DNA of 64,000 nt from an uncultured candidate division Zixibacteria bacterium (GTDB taxonomy: Bacteria > Zixibacteria > MSB-5A5 > UBA10806 > 4484-95). Location of the stretch: assembly GCA_963668625.2 (NCBI GenBank), contig CAXXKA010000001.1, positions 128,001-192,000 on the forward strand. Direction: 5' to 3'. Of the stretch, positions 32,896 to 48,980 are shown piece by piece; position 1 is the stretch's first letter, and each line of letters begins with the position of its first letter. Under the pieces are notes generated by a model. The model saw only the letters and a list, made by a program, of their open reading frames with translations, was not told the DNA's origin and searched no databases. A program made the translations under genes and the position numbers.

Positions 32896-35073
32896 ATGGA
32901 AAACAAATTTCTCCCTGAAATCAAAAGCACTCTGGCGAATCTCCCCAGCCCTCCGAGAGTGCGTGAACTCGCTAAAATGATGAATATCAGCCAGGCTGAC
33001 TATCGCGAGTTCAGGCGGGTCATTAAAGCTGCCGCACATGACGGCGAATTGGAGCGTCTTCGCGGTGGAAGGCTGGCGGTGCCGAGTTTCGTCGGCAGGA
33101 TAAAAGGCCGGCTGCTTATTGCCCGCTCGGGATTCGGTTTCGTAATGCCCGAGGATCAGCCCGAGGAGATATTTGTCAAAGAGCAGGATCTCGCCGGGGC
33201 AATGCATGGCGAAACCGTGATAGTCGAGCTAAAGAAATTCAAGCTCGGTAAAAGCATGGAGGGGCGAATCGTCAAGGTGCTCCATCGCGAGGGAACGCAA
33301 TTAGTAGGCAAGCTGAATAAAAACCGTTACGGCTGGCAGATCGATCCGACCGATCCCCGGATTGACCAAACTATCGAGGTCCGGGAAACCGGTAGTTTTG
33401 CCATAAAGCAGGATTACCTGGCAGTGGTCGTTCTCGATGAGTGGACAGCCGATTACCTTCCACCGACCGGCCGCATAGTCGAGGTGCTCGGTCCCGCCGG
33501 TTCACCCGGTGTCGATATTGACGCCCTGGTTATCAGTTCCGGCGTGCCGATAGAGTTTTCACAGCAGACGATCAACCAGACTAAACAAATCGGTAAAACT
33601 ATCAGCAAGTTCGAGAGAAACCGTCGCAAAGACCTGCGCGATCTGACCGTGTTTACGATAGACCCGGCCGATGCTAAGGATCACGATGATGCTGTCAGCC
33701 TGGAGGAGTTGCCTGACGGCACCTGCAGGCTGGGTGTTCATATAGCGGATGTTTCCCATTATGTCAAAGCCGATAGCTGGCTCGATCAGGATGCGCTTTT
33801 GCGCGGCAACTCGATTTATCTGGTCGACCGTGTCATACCGATGCTTCCCGAAAAGCTCTCGGCCGATCTATGCAGTTTGCACGAGGGTGTGGACAGGATG
33901 GCGCTGACCTGCTTTATCTATTACGATAAACGCGGCAACGTGAAAGACCAGGAGATGCTGGAGACAATCATAAACAGTAACGCCTCTCTCAATTATAACG
34001 AGGTACAGGATTGTCTCGATGGTAACCCAAACGACAAAACCGGGCAGTACGCCGAGCTTCTGGTCAAGATGGATAAGCTCGCCAAAAAATTAAAAGGAAA
34101 GCGCGTTAAAGCGGGCAGTCTCGATTTCGATTTACCCGAGGCCAAGGTAGTGCTCGATCCGGACGGTAATGTCGTGGAGATATTGAAATACCCGCGCTAC
34201 GACAGCCATCGACTGGTAGAGGAATTCATGCTGTCAGCCAACAAGGTCGTGGCTAAACTGTTGGAGGGTTTTGCCGCGCCGATTCTCTTTCGGGTACACG
34301 ATAAACCCGATAAACTTAAAGTGAAAAATTTCGCCGAGCTGATAAAGGAGATGGGTTATACTTTCAGCTTTAAAGGCGAGATAACCCCCAAGAAATTTCA
34401 GCGGGTGCTCGATGAGGTAACCGGCAAAGCGGATGAGGCTTTCGTTCATAAGCTGTTGCTCAGATCGCTTGCTAAGGCGGCGTATCAACCCAACAACCTC
34501 GGCCATTTCGGTTTGGCTTTCGATAGCTACGCTCATTTTACCTCCCCGATCAGGCGCTATCCCGATTTACACTTGCATCGCGTGGTGAAATTATTTATCA
34601 ATAAATTACTGCACGCCGGGATCGCCTCGAAACTCAGGGAGAATTTGAAAAATATCGGCAATCACTGCTCCCAGACCGAGCTTCAGGCGGACGCCCTGGA
34701 ACGCGAGTCGATAAAGATCAAGATGCTGGAGTATTTCGATAATCAAATCGGCGCGCGATTTGCCGGCACCGTATCGGGCGTCGTTCGCTCCGGTTTGTTC
34801 GTGCAAATAGATGAGATGATGGCAGAGGGATTTTTAGCGTACTCATCGTTCGGGGATGATTATTATATCTACGATGAGGTGAAACACGAGGCGGTCGGTA
34901 AGCGCACCAGGAAGAGATTTCGCCTGGGCGATAAAATAGAAATAATCGTAGCCGGGGTAAATCGCGAACGCCGCGAGATGGATTTTTACGCGGCCTCGAT
35001 GGTTGAACCCAAAGAGAAAAAAAACAACAATAAACCTAAACGCAGAGACGTTAAGCCTAAAAAACGAAAATGA
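32896..35073 (+). CDS. rnr: Ribonuclease R
   Basis: TIDPADAKDHDDA, HIADVS, EEFML and HFTSPIRRYPD motifs, S1 domain, basic tail. Confidence 0.95.
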   Translation: MENKFLPEIKSTLANLPSPPRVRELAKMMNISQADYREFRRVIKAAAHDGELERLRGGRLAVPSFVGRIKGRLLIARSGFGFVMPEDQPEEIFVKEQDLAGAMHGETVIVELKKFKLGKSMEGRIVKVLHREGTQLVGKLNKNRYGWQIDPTDPRIDQTIEVRETGSFAIKQDYLAVVVLDEWTADYLPPTGRIVEVLGPAGSPGVDIDALVISSGVPIEFSQQTINQTKQIGKTISKFERNRRKDLRDLTVFTIDPADAKDHDDAVSLEELPDGTCRLGVHIADVSHYVKADSWLDQDALLRGNSIYLVDRVIPMLPEKLSADLCSLHEGVDRMALTCFIYYDKRGNVKDQEMLETIINSNASLNYNEVQDCLDGNPNDKTGQYAELLVKMDKLAKKLKGKRVKAGSLDFDLPEAKVVLDPDGNVVEILKYPRYDSHRLVEEFMLSANKVVAKLLEGFAAPILFRVHDKPDKLKVKNFAELIKEMGYTFSFKGEITPKKFQRVLDEVTGKADEAFVHKLLLRSLAKAAYQPNNLGHFGLAFDSYAHFTSPIRRYPDLHLHRVVKLFINKLLHAGIASKLRENLKNIGNHCSQTELQADALERESIKIKMLEYFDNQIGARFAGTVSGVVRSGLFVQIDEMMAEGFLAYSSFGDDYYIYDEVKHEAVGKRTRKRFRLGDKIEIIVAGVNRERREMDFYAASMVEPKEKKNNNKPKRRDVKPKKRK

Positions 35074-42592: not shown

Positions 42593-44170
42593 ATGAAGAG
42601 GTATAGAGTTTATTTTTTGATGGTACTGGTATTAACAATTATCACCTCGAGTGCTTACCCTATAAATACCAGACAACTGGATAACGGTGTGAAATATATC
42701 GCCAACCGTGTTATCGTGATGACTGATCCTGCATATTCTCATGATGTCGTTGCGGGCAATTTGCTAGCTATGGTTCAAGCGGATGATGATATCGTTAGTG
42801 TCGAGCCTTTTTACGATGGGATACTGAGGAAACAATCGATCAAGCAACTGGCCGACAGGTTATTTATTATCACAACCCGCGAGGATTCCGATTTATTCGC
42901 AGTTATCTCTCGCCTGGAAAACCGGGCTTGTATCCAATCGGCGGAGTTCCAGCCTATTCCCGATCTTTTATACACACCCGATGATCCTTATCTCTATCAA
43001 CAATGGCATTTAGAAAAAGTAGGAGCTTATATCGCCTGGGATTACGTTCGAGGCGAGCAAACCGAAAATGTCGTAATAGCTGTTAACGATGCCGGGATTA
43101 ATTACTACCATCCCGATATAGCGGCCAATATCTGGTACAACGAGAATGAGGATATAAACGGCATTGATGATGATGCTAACGGTTATATTGATGATTACAT
43201 GGGCTGGGATTTCGGCGAGGAAGACAACGACCCGATCGATCATCTCGGCCATGGTACGGGTGTAGCCGCCGCGATTGCCGAGGTTACCGATAACGCCACG
43301 ATGGGTGCCGGATTAGGTTATTCGACCCGACTGATGAATTTGAAGACCATTACCGATAACGGATACCTGGTTGAGGGTTATACCAGCATGTTTTACGCGG
43401 TTGAACAAAATGTGAGTATAATTAACATGTCCTGGGGTATGCCGGTTTATCGTGAATTCGAGCAAGCTATTGTCGATGCTCTCTGGGATGAGGGCGTTTT
43501 GATGATAGCCGCCGGCGGTGAGCGGGATGATCTAACTTATCCGGCTGCTTACAATCATGTTATGGCGGTCTCGGCAACCGATCAGGATGATCATATCGGA
43601 TATTTCGCGCCTTATGGCGAATATATCGATATTTGCGCTCCGGGCGTAGCTATCGGCTTGGCTTATTTCGAGGGTTTTTCTGTTATCACCGGTACCTCAT
43701 TTTCGGCGGGGATGGTTTCCGGGTTGGCCGGCCTGATCAAAGCTTACTATCCCGATTTTACCAACGAGCAGATCTGGCAGATGATTATCGATTCTGCCGA
43801 TCCCATCGATGATATCAATCCGGGTTATGAGGGGCTTATAGGCGCGGGACGGTTAAACGCGGCAAATTGCTTTACCACCGGCATTGAGGAAAACACGCGG
43901 CTACCTGAAAGTATAGCGTTGATTGAAAGCTACCCCAACCCGTTCAACGCCCAAACGCGCATGCGATTTCAGTTGATGAACACTGCCGATGTCGAGTTGA
44001 TTATATACGATATTCTTGGCCGCAAGGTGGAAATCCTGGAGCTAGGCGAGAGGCAAGCCGGCATGCATTCGGTAATCTGGGATGCCAAAGATAAATCATC
44101 AGGAGTGTATTTTGCCAGGTTATACTCCGGTGGGGAATCGGATATAGTGAAAATGGTATTATTGAAATAG
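42593..44170 (+). CDS. S8 subtilisin-like peptidase with T9SS-type CTD
   Basis: Triad motifs AVNDAG, HGTGVA, GTSFSA; C-terminal YPNPFNA...SSGVYF...KMVLLK. Confidence 0.9.
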   Translation: MKRYRVYFLMVLVLTIITSSAYPINTRQLDNGVKYIANRVIVMTDPAYSHDVVAGNLLAMVQADDDIVSVEPFYDGILRKQSIKQLADRLFIITTREDSDLFAVISRLENRACIQSAEFQPIPDLLYTPDDPYLYQQWHLEKVGAYIAWDYVRGEQTENVVIAVNDAGINYYHPDIAANIWYNENEDINGIDDDANGYIDDYMGWDFGEEDNDPIDHLGHGTGVAAAIAEVTDNATMGAGLGYSTRLMNLKTITDNGYLVEGYTSMFYAVEQNVSIINMSWGMPVYREFEQAIVDALWDEGVLMIAAGGERDDLTYPAAYNHVMAVSATDQDDHIGYFAPYGEYIDICAPGVAIGLAYFEGFSVITGTSFSAGMVSGLAGLIKAYYPDFTNEQIWQMIIDSADPIDDINPGYEGLIGAGRLNAANCFTTGIEENTRLPESIALIESYPNPFNAQTRMRFQLMNTADVELIIYDILGRKVEILELGERQAGMHSVIWDAKDKSSGVYFARLYSGGESDIVKMVLLK

Positions 44171-44901: not shown

Positions 44902-45276
44902 ATGAAATGCTTTTTCCAGGGAGTTGTTAGAGACAACAATATCGAAACCCAGTTCAACAGCTTTGTAAGTTTCATCATACCCGAGCTTGGAATCAATTTC
45001 CGAGGCCAGTTTAAAGGCGACTATGAGGAATGCGAGTACGCCAGCCTTCTGGCCCTCCTGGAGTTCATTGAATTAAACAATCATCTCTTCAAAGATAAAC
45101 GAATCGAGATACTTGGCAATAACTACAGCGTAATCAGCCAGGTCAACTCGGTCGAGGAGCCCTCCACGGATTTGGAGCCGTTATGCAGTCTGGCGCAAAG
45201 CTATAAGAAGAAATTCCCGTTTATCCTGGACTGGATTCCTACCGAAGAAAATATGGCTCAGGATCGCTGGGTGTAG
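44902..45276 (+). CDS. Small protein with degenerate RNase HI-like motifs
   Basis: ECEYASLLALLE and IEILGNNYSVISQVN resemble AEYxAL and GDSxLVxxQ; strong AAGGAGG RBS. Confidence 0.6.
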   Translation: MKCFFQGVVRDNNIETQFNSFVSFIIPELGINFRGQFKGDYEECEYASLLALLEFIELNNHLFKDKRIEILGNNYSVISQVNSVEEPSTDLEPLCSLAQSYKKKFPFILDWIPTEENMAQDRWV

Positions 45277-45304
45277 CGTTTAAAATGAAAACCGGAAGCT
45301 TGTT

Positions 45305-45333
45305 TAAGGGTCATTCAATGGCCCTTATTTTTT
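45305..45333 (+). terminator. Intrinsic terminator
   Basis: TAAGGGTCATT-C-AATGGCCCTTA followed by TTTTTT. Confidence 0.75.
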
Positions 45334-45472
45334 GTTTATACTGTTTGACTAAACTCAAATACATGTTATATTTAAGTAGGGTAGAGAACTTAAGCTTCAT
45401 AGAAATGGTTTATTTAATTGGAAACAAAGGAGATGGTACGATAAAAGCATCTTGCTAATCTATTCTGTTGGT

Positions 45473-45645
45473 GTTAGAGCTTCGGTAATGAATTTCTAAC
45501 TGGAGCGGATAGGTTATAGGCTGAACTGAATGCTTGAGGCCAGACCTCGTAAAGGAGATTAATCAGACCTGTAACCGAATTGCCACCATAAGGCAAAGAC
45601 CTTGAATAGGAGTTTGGTAGGCGCCGACAGAGAGTCTGCTCCAGT
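45473..45645 (+). ncRNA. Putative bridge/seek RNA of the IS110 element
   Basis: 5' hairpin, basal stem 45499-509/45635-45, and two internal-loop domains carrying target (AAAGGAGAT) and donor (ATAGGAG, ACCAT) matches. Confidence 0.75.
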
Positions 45646-45670
45646 GATAACCATAGAATGGAGCAAGAAG

Positions 45671-46684
45671 ATGAGGTACTTAGGAGTAGACCTTCACACA
45701 AACAGTTTGACCGTGTGTTACCTGACAGCCGGTGGTCGGGAGAGGATCAAGGAGTATCGGCTAAAGGATCTAAAGGAATTTAAACGAGGATTAAAAAAGA
45801 CGGATTGTGTAGCGGTTGAGGCCACTGGCAACACTCGTTATTTCGTTGATGAGATATCGCATTTGGTCAAGCGAGTTGTTGTCGTCGATCCGAACAAATT
45901 TGAGATAATCAAATCATCAGTCAGTAAGACGGATGAAAACGATGCCAGGAACTTAGCCTATTTTATGAGCAAAGACATGTTGCCGAAAGCCCGATTAAAG
46001 ACGAAAGATAAAGCGCAGATCAGTTCACTTGTTGGGACACGGGACAAGCTGGTCAAGTTACGTACAGCTTTGAAGAATAAAATACACAACATACTCAATC
46101 ATCATGGTATCAAGAGTAAAAAGGAGGCCTACTCCAGCAACAAGAGTTTGGAGCGGGTTCTAAAGATGAATTTTGATGAGGTTGTTTCTGTTGAGCTTGA
46201 GGTATTGGTTGATCAGATTCGCAGTTTGAATGAGGGGATAAAAAAGCTGGACAAACAGATAGAGGATCAGGGTCGCAAGTTGAACGGGCATAAGAACCTG
46301 ACCAGCATCAAAGGAATCGGCAGCAAATCAGCTACAGTGTTGCTTTCGGTAATTGGTGATGTTGCTGATTTTTCGGACAAAGATAAATTGGCCTCATATT
46401 TTGGCGTAGTGCCGCGAGTTTCCAATTCAAACGAGATTCAGCATCATGGTCGGATTACCAAGCGTGGTTCTAAGATTGGTCGGACTACACTGGTGCAGTG
46501 TACGCTTGTTGCCATACGATATAACCATTACTTGAGTAAATATTACAATCGTATAAAAAACCGTCGTGGCAGCGGTAAGGCTATCATTGCCACAGCCAGA
46601 AAATTACTGGGAATAATCTATGACACCTTGAAAAATAATTGGGTGTTTGAAGATTTCCCTAACTTTGTGTTAGCAAACAGATAA
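45671..46684 (+). CDS. IS110-family DEDD transposase/recombinase
   Basis: YLGVDLH, AVEATG, KTDENDA, SIKGIG, ASYFGVVP and A.ARKL motifs; ATG at 45671 follows GGAG. Confidence 0.95.
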   Translation: MRYLGVDLHTNSLTVCYLTAGGRERIKEYRLKDLKEFKRGLKKTDCVAVEATGNTRYFVDEISHLVKRVVVVDPNKFEIIKSSVSKTDENDARNLAYFMSKDMLPKARLKTKDKAQISSLVGTRDKLVKLRTALKNKIHNILNHHGIKSKKEAYSSNKSLERVLKMNFDEVVSVELEVLVDQIRSLNEGIKKLDKQIEDQGRKLNGHKNLTSIKGIGSKSATVLLSVIGDVADFSDKDKLASYFGVVPRVSNSNEIQHHGRITKRGSKIGRTTLVQCTLVAIRYNHYLSKYYNRIKNRRGSGKAIIATARKLLGIIYDTLKNNWVFEDFPNFVLANR

Positions 46685-46721
46685 CTGAAATTTGGAGTAG
46701 ACTTTTATCATAGGAGATGAA

Positions 46722-48980
46722 ATGAAAAAATATCTATTGTTCGCGGTTGCTTTTAGCCTGATGCTTTCAGCATCCGCCATACATGCAAACGAGAATCCCT
46801 CATTGTTGCATGTTTACTTAATGAATAAAACCGATGTTATGAAGCTGGCCGATATGCCTCTGGATATTCCTTATTATACAGAGGATTATGTCGAGGTAGT
46901 TGCTTATAGTGATGATATCGCGGAAATAGCCGCGGCCGGATTGCATTATGATATAGTGCAGGAAGATATGGTTAGTTTCTATCAACAACGCAACCCGGTG
47001 ATTACCACGATGGGCGGATACCTGACCTATAGCGAAGTAGTGGACTCTCTTGATATGCTTCATATGCTTTATCCTGAACTGGTCTCCGAGAAATTTTCGA
47101 TCGGCCAGAGCTGGGAGGAGCGCGATCTGTGGGTGATCAAGGTTTCGGATAATGTCGATACCGATGAGGATGAGCCTGAGATTTTCTACAATGCATTAAT
47201 TCACGCTCGCGAACCTGCAAGTATGGCCTGGCAACTGAATTTCCTTTCCTGGCTTCTGGAAAATTATGGCATAGATGATGATGCTACCGAAATTCTGGAT
47301 GGACGTGAAATCTGGTTCCTGCCCGTTTTTAATCCGGATGGCTACGAATATAACCGTCAGACCAACCCTAACGGCGGCGGCATGTGGCGTAAAAACAGAC
47401 GTTCCGGTGGCGGAGTTGACTTGAACCGTAACTGGGGCTACATGTGGGGCTATGATGATGACGGCTCTTCGCCTTATTCCAGTGATGAAACCTATCGAGG
47501 CCCGGCGGCGTTTTCGGAACCCGAGACTCAAGCTGTCAGAGATTTCATTACCGGCCGCGATTTCAGTTTCATTATAAACGCGCATACTTATGGCAACTGG
47601 TGGTTGTATCCTTACGGCTATGATGATATTTATACTCCCGATCAGTCGATTTTCAGCGCTATCGGCGACTCCGTCGAAACGTTGACCGGTGGCGATTACA
47701 GACCCGGTACCGCCTGGGAATGTTTATACAATACCAATGGTGATGCCAACGACTGGCAGTACGGCGAACTCGGCCTGTTTTGTGCCACCCCCGAAACCGG
47801 CAATTCCTCGGATGGATTTTGGCCGGCGTCGTATCGTATAAATCCACTTAACGCCCAGATGTTACCCGTAGCTATCTATATCGCTCAGATTGCCGGAAAT
47901 GTCGAGACAATCTCGGCGCCGACCGCGCCCGTCTTGAACCCCATCGGCCAGCTCGATACATCATCGTATACCGTAAGTTGGACGCATGAGGATGAGGATA
48001 ATCCGGCTGTGGCTTATGAACTGGTCGAGAAATCGGGATATCTCAGAACCGAAGACGATATCGAATCGGGTGATGGTTTGTGGGAGTTCGATGGTTACGG
48101 AATCAGTACCAGCCGTTATCACTCCTCTAACCATAGTATATTTTCCGGGAATGAGAACTCATACCACGGCAGCGCTATTTTGGCTGATGAGCTGAACGTT
48201 TTAGATGATGACACTCTGTCGTTCTGGGTTTGGTTCGATGTCGAGGAAGATTTCGACTATGGCTATGTTGAAATTTCCACCGATGGCGGGGCTATTTTCA
48301 CACCGATCGAGGGAAATATAACCACTAATTACGATCCTAACGGCTCCAACCGGGGTAATGGTATAACCGGCTCCTCCGCAGGTTGGATCGAGGCCTCGTT
48401 CCCGCTGGATGCTTACGCCGGTATGTCCGTCCAGATCAAATTCAGCTATGTTACCGATAGCTGGATGCTGGAGAGTGGTATATATATAGATGATGTTTAC
48501 CCGATTGAGACTTTCGAAAGCGAGATGGTTCTGGCCTCGGATATTGCAGATAACTTCTACGATATAACAGATCGGGAAAATGGTACTTATTTCTATCAGG
48601 TCCGGGCGAAAGATGCCGAGGATCAATGGTCGGGATTCTCCAATCGCGAGGCCGCTATTGTTGACGCTAACGTATCAATAGATGATAACAATCAGATTCC
48701 GGCCGAATTTAACCTGGCGCAGAATTACCCAAATCCGTTTAATGCCAGCACCGAAATTAGTTTTGCTTTATCGAGCGCCGGTTACATTACTCTCGAGGTT
48801 TACGATATCGCCGGCAGATTGGTAAGAACTCTCCTGAGCAGCGATATGACGGCAGGCGATCATACCGTAATATGGAACGGCTCGAATGATAACGCCGAAT
48901 CGGTTTCTTCCGGCATATATTTCTATAAGCTCACGACCGATCAAAAATCGGAAACCAGGCGGATGACCTTACTCAAGTAA
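46722..48980 (+). CDS. M14 zinc carboxypeptidase (carboxypeptidase T-like) with InhA/MAM-like domain and T9SS-type CTD
   Basis: HAREP, WRKNR, GVDLNRN, FSEPET, HTYG and QNYPNPFN...SGIYFYKL motifs. Confidence 0.92.
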   Translation: MKKYLLFAVAFSLMLSASAIHANENPSLLHVYLMNKTDVMKLADMPLDIPYYTEDYVEVVAYSDDIAEIAAAGLHYDIVQEDMVSFYQQRNPVITTMGGYLTYSEVVDSLDMLHMLYPELVSEKFSIGQSWEERDLWVIKVSDNVDTDEDEPEIFYNALIHAREPASMAWQLNFLSWLLENYGIDDDATEILDGREIWFLPVFNPDGYEYNRQTNPNGGGMWRKNRRSGGGVDLNRNWGYMWGYDDDGSSPYSSDETYRGPAAFSEPETQAVRDFITGRDFSFIINAHTYGNWWLYPYGYDDIYTPDQSIFSAIGDSVETLTGGDYRPGTAWECLYNTNGDANDWQYGELGLFCATPETGNSSDGFWPASYRINPLNAQMLPVAIYIAQIAGNVETISAPTAPVLNPIGQLDTSSYTVSWTHEDEDNPAVAYELVEKSGYLRTEDDIESGDGLWEFDGYGISTSRYHSSNHSIFSGNENSYHGSAILADELNVLDDDTLSFWVWFDVEEDFDYGYVEISTDGGAIFTPIEGNITTNYDPNGSNRGNGITGSSAGWIEASFPLDAYAGMSVQIKFSYVTDSWMLESGIYIDDVYPIETFESEMVLASDIADNFYDITDRENGTYFYQVRAKDAEDQWSGFSNREAAIVDANVSIDDNNQIPAEFNLAQNYPNPFNASTEISFALSSAGYITLEVYDIAGRLVRTLLSSDMTAGDHTVIWNGSNDNAESVSSGIYFYKLTTDQKSETRRMTLLK

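Follow-up and report, generated by a model that had tools for sequence, protein, structure and literature searches.

A candidate bridge RNA in the left end of an IS110-family insertion sequence, with a guide that follows the Shine-Dalgarno sequences at its insertion sites

An insertion sequence (IS) that lies exactly between the ribosome-binding site (RBS) and the start codon of a host gene raises the question of how such a position is chosen, and of whether the non-coding end of the element itself specifies it. The question is considered here for an IS110-family element of an uncultured candidate division Zixibacteria bacterium, present in a window of 64,000 nucleotides (contig CAXXKA010000001.1, positions 128,001 to 192,000 of the forward strand; coordinates below are those of the window). 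To our knowledge, the smallest programmable recombinases described so far are guided by bridge (or seek) RNAs, and the Shine-Dalgarno sequence is the most conserved short motif in bacterial genomes. A preliminary description of the window, made from its letters, had proposed that the left end of the element folds into an RNA with two loops, one spelling out the target and the other the donor site. Considering the comparisons reported below, the segment 45433-46716 is very probably an active-looking IS, the left end of which supplies its DEDD/Ser recombinase with a bridge (seek) RNA of about 180 nt. The parts on which the argument turns are the following.

45433-46716, + strand: IS110-family insertion sequence of 1284 bp, the right-hand copy of the core counted in; ends set by flank comparison.
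45671-46684, + strand: recombinase gene, 337 aa.
~45465-45645, + strand: candidate bridge/seek RNA of about 180 nt, in the left end of the element, upstream of the recombinase gene.
45426-45432, + strand: left target plus core, the host Shine-Dalgarno sequence AAAGGAG, of which the last two bases, AG (45431-45432), are the core.
45551-45557, + strand: target guide AAAGGAG, made of 5 nt of left target plus the AG core; sense-identical to the top strand.

The genome of the window holds 11 copies of the element, with 99-100% identity, and the boundaries were derived from the comparison of their 11 pairs of flanks. At the left junction the host ends with (A/T)AAGGAG and the element starts with ATGGTACGATAAAAG, while at the right junction the element ends with TTTTATCATAGGAG and is followed by 5-8 variable host bases and then ATG. 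The extent of 1284 bp at 45433-46716 follows from this comparison and agrees with the public assembly contigs, where a repeat contig of 1290 nt (45427-46716) has a depth of 51 versus about 7 in the flanks. Neither a joined right end-left end (RE-LE) form nor an empty site was seen in the assembly contigs of four sequencing runs. The non-coding ends are unequal, with 238 nt before the ATG of the recombinase on the left and 32 nt after its stop codon on the right.

Of 6941 candidate proteins, 4827 were homologous to the recombinase at E ≤ 1e-3. Among species-representative genomes, a scan found 80 loci with 54-68% protein identity, which come from metagenome-assembled genomes (MAGs) labelled Planctomycetota, Acidobacteriota, Calditrichota, Pseudomonadota and others. 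Within the same phylum a match was found in 11 of 285 genomes, the genome of the window included; all the matches outside the latter had at most 31% identity, and these loci (L013-L022) were left out of later comparisons. With nhmmer, the left-end RNA was found in 79 of the 80 loci, partially in L036 and not at all in L087. Both of these loci look truncated: L036 (1391-1466) keeps only the donor half of the RNA, and in L087 the RNA is gone while the end of the left region and the gene remain.

The relationship between the RNA and the insertion site was studied by comparing the junctions of the homologues at fixed alignment columns, and by shuffling the RNAs among the sites 10000 times. A mutual-information scan was dominated by clade effects, and it was used to locate diagonals, on which identities or complements were then counted. 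In 77 distinct RNA-site pairs, the five bases that precede AG in the guide were identical to host positions -7 to -3 in 366 of 385 cells, compared to 304.9 ± 4.6 in the shuffles, none of which reached that count. This is the cleanest of the tests, because host flanks are not inherited with the element. Guides with T at the position corresponding to -7 had T in 23 of 26 flanks, and those with A had A in 40 of 48. At position -8 the match was at most weak (21/77 versus 15.6, with 154 of 10000 shuffles as high), so the guide is essentially 7 nt long. Its sequence is that of the top strand, and its pairing partner must therefore be the bottom strand.

The preliminary description had noticed the identity of AAAGGAGAT at 45551-45559 with the host flank at 45426-45434, and had suggested that the loop sequences should be compared with the flanks of homologous elements. 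In that comparison the loop of the first arm did mirror the left flanks, and natural retargetings were present. Two of them concern sites that are not Shine-Dalgarno sequences: L101, with the loop ATATCCAG and the flank atatccag, and L080, with the loop ATAACCAG and the flank ataaccag, each of them with 8/8 matches. Other changes of target were those of L078 (loop TTCAGGAG, flank ttcaggag), of L106 and L108 (GTGGAG), and of the L091 group (TGAGGAG). The misses of the guide were three mismatches in L071 and one each in L082, L089, L103, L105, L086 and L099. Within the 64-kb window AAAGGAGAT occurs 3 times versus 0.70 expected, a number reached by 5 of 100 shuffles; the third occurrence, at 34344-34352, has no element beside it and is a potential free target.

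L080 (178-390) and L101 (1257-1469) are related elements, from MAGs labelled Desulfobaccales and Desulfuromonadaceae, neither of them with a downstream open reading frame (ORF). The 5′ strand of their target loop (GAGAUAUG) has partial complementarity with the 3′ guide. In the window the corresponding strand is:

45525-45534, + strand: 5′ strand of the target loop, ACTGAATGCT; guide function not detected.

The sole signal of this strand with the right flank was one position versus the first base after the core (51/75 versus 36.6).

Concerning the donor side, the second loop was compared with the ends of the element itself, using the following features.

45606-45612, + strand: donor guide AUAGGAG, made of 5 nt of right end plus the AG core; sense-identical to the right end at 46710-46716.
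46710-46716, + strand: left donor plus core, ATAGGAG, which regenerates the Shine-Dalgarno sequence of the host gene starting at 46722.
45582-45585, + strand: 5′ guide of the donor loop, GCCA, complementary to element positions +2 to +5 (TGGT, 45434-45437, top strand).

The 3′ strand of the donor loop was identical to the right end in 269 of 270 cells, versus 259.6 expected and with none of 10000 shuffles as high, so that the likeness of ATAGGAG to the right end, seen in the window from the beginning, holds in the homologues as a tracking of one by the other. Variant donor guides matched their own right ends (ATGGGAG in 4 distinct RNAs, ATAGAAG in one), and the lone mismatch was that of L076. 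On the 5′ strand, GCCA was complementary to positions +2 to +5 in 201 of 216 cells versus 182.5 (0/10000), with compensatory changes of U with A (7/7), A with T (1/1) and C with G (4/4). Taken together with the target loop, these results bear out the proposal of a bispecific guide of the IS110 family, with one loop for the target and another for the donor.

The dinucleotide AG was invariant at both junctions, in 77/77 sites and 54/54 elements, and in L080 and L101 it is the only sequence that target and donor have in common. On these two grounds AG has to be taken as the core instead of AT, with CT on the opposite strand. An AT core had been proposed because the copy in the window happens to precede ATG; AT follows the right end in this copy and in none of the other ten.

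Next to the guides there are bases that match the opposite partner, as would be expected of handshake bases.

45558-45559, + strand: handshake-like dinucleotide AU, equal to the first two bases of the element (45433-45434).
45613, + strand: U, a weak handshake-like match to the first host base after the insertion.

The two bases after the target guide were identical to the first two of the element in 80 of 108 cells versus 62.3 (0/10000), AT going with AT in 25 elements and AC with AC in 12. For the two bases after the donor guide (columns 159-160), the match with the right flank was 62/160 versus 48.1, a value reached in 99 of 10000 shuffles. The first host base after the insertion was T in 9 of the 11 copies, versus 97 of the 490 free AAAGGAG sites.

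The 237-nt left end of the window folds at -80.5 kcal/mol (z = -5.04), with none of 200 shuffles as good. The alignment for the study of covariation contained the RNA of the window and 55 distinct others (56 in total), after removal of duplicates and of L083, which is cut by a contig end. RNAalifold alone missed the lower stem of arm 1 and proposed two small helices without compensation, and for this reason the structure in the preliminary description, whose strings and coordinates are all present in the sequence, was scored explicitly on the alignment. Its elements are:

45499-45509, + strand: 5′ strand of the basal stem, ACTGGAGCGGA; pairs with 45635-45645.
45635-45645, + strand: 3′ strand of the basal stem, TCTGCTCCAGT; 11 bp with one G-U.
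45512-45524, + strand: 5′ strand of the lower stem of arm 1, GGTTATAGG-CTGA; pairs with TCAG-A-CCTGTAACC at 45563-45576.
45535-45549, + strand: apical hairpin of arm 1, stem GAGG/CCTC.
45589-45604, + strand: apical hairpin of arm 2, stem AAGG/CCTT.

In this structure 88.7% of the cells were paired, compared to 81.3 ± 0.4% after shuffling (a score reached by none of 500 shuffles) and to 28-48% in slid controls, and both sides of the pair had changed in 23 of 40 pairs. Compensatory changes were seen in 7/11 pairs of the basal stem, and changes of both sides in 6/11 pairs, plus 1/2, of the lower stem of arm 1, in 3/5 pairs of its apical stem (99.3% paired) and in 4/5 pairs of the apical stem of arm 2 (100% paired). 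Stem covariation in homologues, one of the checks suggested beforehand, gives strong evidence that the left-end RNA has a conserved, covarying fold. The two-arm fold stood as far as the basal stem, arm 1 and both apical hairpins are concerned. The lower stem of arm 2 (TTGCCA/TGGTAG) is a candidate helix, whose 5′ strand behaves as a DNA guide and whose 3′ strand joins a helix with the leader. This other helix extends the RNA to the 5′ side of the start formerly assigned to it, and is formed by:

45465-45475, + strand: leader strand, CTGTTGGTGTT; long-range helix with 45620-45630.
45620-45630, + strand: linker strand, GGCGCCGACAG, between the donor hairpin and the basal stem.

In the leader-linker helix both sides had changed in 9 of 11 pairs, with 68.5% of the cells paired. 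The duplex of each leader with its own linker had a mean of -19.4 kcal/mol, versus -12.7 kcal/mol for 1898 pairings with foreign linkers; it was better than the median foreign partner in 53 of 55 RNAs, and better than all of them in 22. The helix and the basal stem cross each other, so either a pseudoknot is formed or the RNA switches between folds. The leader-linker duplexes often reach into the UGG that follows the donor guide. Such an extension would free GCCA for the reading of DNA, and would put the donor-binding bases at a multi-helix junction, as Durrant (2024, PMC11208160) remarks for IS1111 RNAs. Leader positions 45477-45484, and the homologous leaders, contain a motif (A/G)CU(U/C)C(A/G)G that resembles the 3′ strand of the basal stem and could pair with its 5′ strand (GCUUC/GGAGC here, ACUCC/GGAGU in relatives), which hints at a possible switch between folds. 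At the other end of the element, GGAGTAGAC (46694-46702) is a near-copy of the 5′ strand of the basal stem (consensus GGAGTAGA); the motif is present in most right ends, is complementary to the basal 3′ strand, and overlaps a -35-like hexamer described below. It may be a promoter element alone, or serve as a site for RNA or protein too. A search of Rfam gave nothing at E < 0.99 over 45200-46900, and none on the RNA, in a database that may hold no bridge-RNA family.

The recombinase matched the Pfam families DEDD_Tnp_IS110 (PF01548, 5.7e-13) and Transposase_20 (PF02371, 5.4e-22). Residues D7, E50, D88 and D91 align with the DEDD catalytic residues of IS621, and S253, which is invariant among the aligned homologues, is likely the nucleophile. 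The similarity to IS621 and ISCro4 (E about 1e-12 in phmmer) is mainly in the C-terminal domain. With the IS4321 transposase there is 26% identity over residues 4-317 (E = 1e-16) and a shared KRG.K..RT.LVQC block.

The target of the clade is a Shine-Dalgarno sequence, 5-9 nt upstream of a start codon and in the orientation of the gene. Of 79 distinct right flanks, 66 have within 24 nt a start codon that opens an ORF of 60 codons or more, and the distance is 5-9 nt in 58 of these; among the misses are L080 and L101, both retargeted to a site that is not a Shine-Dalgarno sequence. In the genome of the window ATG is found 5-8 nt downstream of 11/11 copies, in nine of them as the start of an ORF that runs for 60 codons or more. 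Element and host gene always have the same orientation, and ATAGGAG at the right end provides the gene with AGGAG again, its spacing unchanged. That genome contains 499 AAAGGAG sites, of which 9 are occupied, and two more copies are at TAAGGAG. Only 158 of the 490 free AAAGGAG sites (32%) are in a Shine-Dalgarno context, and since all 11 copies precede ATG nonetheless, selection or a further determinant also acts. At the left junction (45426-45444) the Shine-Dalgarno sequence abuts ATG GTA CGA TAA of the element, and in relatives ATG GCA TGA or ATG GTA TGA; a mini-ORF of 2-3 codons with zero spacing to the Shine-Dalgarno sequence is thus present at every left junction.

The guides for target and donor differ by one base (AAAGG versus ATAGG), so right ends of the element may serve as targets. 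L105 is inserted behind ctcATAGGAG, which resembles the right end of a sister element, and the right flank of L063 has further copies of CCATCATAGGAG at +675 and +692.

Several points weigh against the interpretation of the left end as a bridge RNA, or limit it. The RNA is known here as a stretch of genome, and both its expression and its binding by the recombinase are predictions. The shuffles ignore phylogeny. The donor-side correlations are between parts of one element, which are inherited together, and the comparison with host flanks is alone free of that. Reading of both DNA strands, as in IS621, was seen for the donor, and for the target with the 3′ strand only: the 5′ strand of the target loop showed no diagonal of complementarity with the target, its strongest cells resting on the related L080 and L101, which agrees with an early caveat that this strand of arm 1 matched the right flank poorly. 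The handshake bases mismatch in the Ruegeria group (CU versus GG) and in the group of L038 and L040 (AA versus GT). As to the fold, the lower stem of arm 2 was paired in 83.5% of the cells, the same as the alternative register CACC/GGTG, and the basal stem and the leader-linker helix are not both nested, so they may belong to alternative folds. Finally, the strand polarity and the order of cleavage are derived by analogy from IS621, which is only distantly related.

These points have to be set beside other ways of explaining the same features. It could be that the left end is a cis-regulatory 5′ untranslated region (UTR) of the recombinase mRNA, for example with a decoy or masked RBS, and that AGGAG in the loops is Shine-Dalgarno-like instead of a guide for DNA. 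AGGAG does occur in both loops, in the single-sequence fold the leader is paired with the surroundings of the recombinase RBS, and the leader offers an alternative partner for the basal stem. A regulatory role of this kind could coexist with a guide role, but it leaves unexplained that the target loops follow ATATCCAG, ATAACCAG, GTGGAG and single-base variants of the flanks, and that the donor loop follows the right-end variants ATGGGAG and ATAGAAG; as the full explanation it is very unlikely. Neither does it seem credible, save with a very small probability, that the target is chosen by the protein or by selection alone, and that the loops resemble the flanks by shared ancestry and by the ubiquity of Shine-Dalgarno-like sequences. 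The AAGGAG guide is indeed common to most elements, AGGAG-like sites are present at most bacterial genes, and the excess of copies before ATG over the 32% of free sites would fit selection or some other determinant. Against this, host flanks that are not inherited with the element track the guide at the variable positions -7 to -3, as no shuffle did, and the two retargetings outside Shine-Dalgarno sequences match at every position.

The first model in its literal form, in which the bridge RNA is IS621-like, the core is AT and ACCAT (45585-45589) guides the left end ATGGT, can be given hardly any weight. It accounts for the fact that both junctions of the window copy read AGGAGAT, and ACCAT is indeed complementary to 45433-45437. 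However, 10 of the 11 copies lack AT after the right end, the invariant dinucleotide at both junctions is AG, and this is all that L080 and L101 share between target and donor. Besides, in the register of ACCAT there was no tracking of the donor (213/270 versus 210.3, with 1975 of 10000 shuffles as high), and it is GCCA that tracks the left end instead. The bridge (seek) RNA with an AG core, a 7-nt target guide and a donor loop that matches both strands is the interpretation retained.

If the bridge RNA works by analogy with IS621, the partner of both 3′ guide strands would be the DNA strand that is antisense to the recombinase gene and has CT as its core. On this strand the layout would be right guide, core and handshake, as in IS621, which would mean that the recombination sites are inverted relative to the gene cassette. 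Strand exchange would take place at AG/CT, between a circular RE-LE junction and the target (A/T)AAGGAG. With a Shine-Dalgarno sequence before a start codon as the target, the element would land in a transcribed 5′ UTR; it would be transcribed from the host promoter or, in the circle, from a promoter formed at the junction, and its right end would hand AGGAG back to the host gene at the original spacing. Sequence features that bear on this scheme are:

45345-45372, + strand: host promoter-like site TTGACT-16-TATATT, reading into the element; consensus match, weak.
45305-45327: terminator-like hairpin of the upstream gene; consensus match.
46698-46703, + strand: -35-like hexamer TAGACT, 17 nt from TACGAT with the ends abutted.
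45437-45442, + strand: -10-like hexamer TACGAT, of the putative circle-junction promoter.
45437-45447, + strand: left subterminal inverted repeat, TACGATAAAAG, with the exact run GATAAAAG at 45440-45447.
46702-46709, + strand: right subterminal inverted repeat, CTTTTATC.

The promoter scan gave 3 sites, compared to 3.7 ± 1.5 in shuffles, and consensus matching found no terminator-like site on the + strand inside the window copy of the element. When the ends were abutted, the spacing between -35 and -10 was 17-18 nt in 39 of 52 distinct elements, with the -10-like hexamer at positions 5-10 of the left end, so a promoter rebuilt at the circle junction is a putative feature of the clade. The inverted repeats of the window, GATAAAAG and CTTTTATC, have 8 exact positions, or 10 of 11 in extended form; in 31 of the 52 distinct elements there was an exact inverted run of 7 nt or more.

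The element of the window lies between genes for secreted proteins. The downstream gene (46722-48980) encodes an M14 carboxypeptidase with MAM-like, FlgD-Ig and type IX secretion sorting domains, and upstream there is an ORF of 525 aa (42593-44170). Contigs of the sample (run X1, loose ends 45543 and 45598) hold a second, diverged RNA of the same family, with a different 5′ strand of the target loop and a different donor hairpin, which indicates that more than one member of the clade is present in that sample.

What is of interest here is the targeting of a Shine-Dalgarno half-site with regeneration of the site, and the covarying helix that crosses the basal stem. There is no new principle, as RNA-guided recombination by IS110 and IS1111 elements, the reversed order of the guides, the exceptions with an upstream RNA and the targeting of Shine-Dalgarno sequences have each been published. 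It would be a further step to consider the clade a third architecture, with a pseudoknotted left-end RNA of IS1111-type polarity, a half-site read by a single 7-nt guide and one handshake base in place of the dual-strand site of IS621, and a wiring into the host 5′ UTR, by which the host promoter would transcribe the element and the returned Shine-Dalgarno sequence would keep the downstream gene translatable. We regard this as possible but doubtful; if true, the clade would represent a bridge recombinase that is minimal by nature, with one guide, and would be a rarity among IS in being built so as not to disrupt.

With the bridge-RNA interpretation itself, a well-populated natural clade would be added to the bridge/seek-RNA systems. 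It would indicate that recombination sites can have the inverse polarity relative to the RNA/recombinase cassette with no change in the handshake logic, that an IS1111-like order of guides can occur together with an upstream RNA, that a target may be set by just about 8 nt on one guide strand, and that an element may exploit and rebuild a Shine-Dalgarno sequence. The natural retargetings to ATATCCAG and ATAACCAG offer ready-made tests of programmability. For the purpose of annotation, the interpretation accounts for an IS placed exactly between an RBS and a start codon, and suggests that genes downstream of such insertions may stay expressed.

No published description of the clade was found in a limited literature search, and the supplementary sets of published surveys may hold it. 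Among known elements, IS900 and IS901 are inserted behind the Shine-Dalgarno sequence and ahead of the start codon (Plague 2010, citing Doran 1997 and Inglis 2003). The likeness of these IS110-family elements of Mycobacterium avium to the present clade is in the position of insertion, at the RBS/start codon and in one orientation. As a difference, IS900 codes for a longer transposase, of about 400 aa, in antisense to the host gene, and the consensus of its target is given for the other strand.

In IS621, the 5′ side of the loop pairs with the bottom strand, and the core lies within both guides, as described by Durrant (2024, PMC11208160); two handshake bases 3′ of the right guides pair with non-cognate DNA after the exchange, and the core is CT (Hiraizumi 2024, PMC11208158). 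The present system is like IS621 in having a recombinase with DEDD and Ser residues, an RNA of about 180 nt in the left end and upstream of the gene, the target loop before the donor loop, guides that contain the shared core dinucleotide (CT on one strand), and a 2-nt handshake extension 3′ of the core-pairing bases that matches the non-cognate partner. Junction promoters have been described for both IS110 and IS1111, and a promoter rebuilt across the circle junction would be a further likeness, seen here in its geometry alone. Unlike IS621, the 7-nt guide is on the 3′ strand of the loop and sense to the left flank, while in IS621 it is the 5′ strand that is sense to the left flank; a second target guide was not detected in the present alignments; the basal stem closes both arms; a leader-linker helix is present; and the recombinase is distantly related, mainly through its C-terminal domain. 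The layout is thus not of the IS621 type, and resembles it only if the antisense strand of the gene is taken for the reading of the DNA. The preliminary description was correct in calling the guides atypical, by comparison with IS621, for being sense-matching on the 3′ strands of the loops. The layout is not without precedent, though, since the same order has been published for seekRNAs of the IS1111 type.

In these seekRNAs the order is reversed as a rule, with the top-strand match 5′ of the bottom-strand match, and the non-coding region is upstream in a few IS1111 members, ISMtsp17 among them (Siddiquee 2024, PMC11187229). The group is further characterised by a long non-coding region with the RNA downstream of the transposase gene, by subterminal inverted repeats of 7-17 bp, by transposases of 330-350 aa and by the motif GL-P----S(t)G. 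The donor-binding bases of IS1111 RNAs are at a junction of several helices instead of a simple internal loop, according to Durrant (2024, PMC11208160). Two features argue against membership of the present clade in the IS1111 group: its RNA precedes the gene, in the left end, and its C-terminal motif reads GVVPRVSNSN (G-VP----SN), with SN where IS1111 has S(t)G. The target loop also departs from the seekRNAs, as it shows only the 3′ bottom-strand match and no top-strand match. On the other hand, the donor loop has GCCA (top strand) 5′ of AUAGGAG (bottom strand), like the seekRNAs of ISEc11, ISPa11 and ISKpn4, and the same order of matches was read in the downstream RNA region of IS4321 (locus L109, one copy). 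The clade is also like IS1111 in its subterminal inverted repeats of at least 7 nt, in the size of its recombinase, whose 337 aa fall inside the range of 330-350 aa, in the relation of this protein to the IS4321 transposase over its full length, and in the location of the donor-binding bases, which would be at a multi-helix junction.

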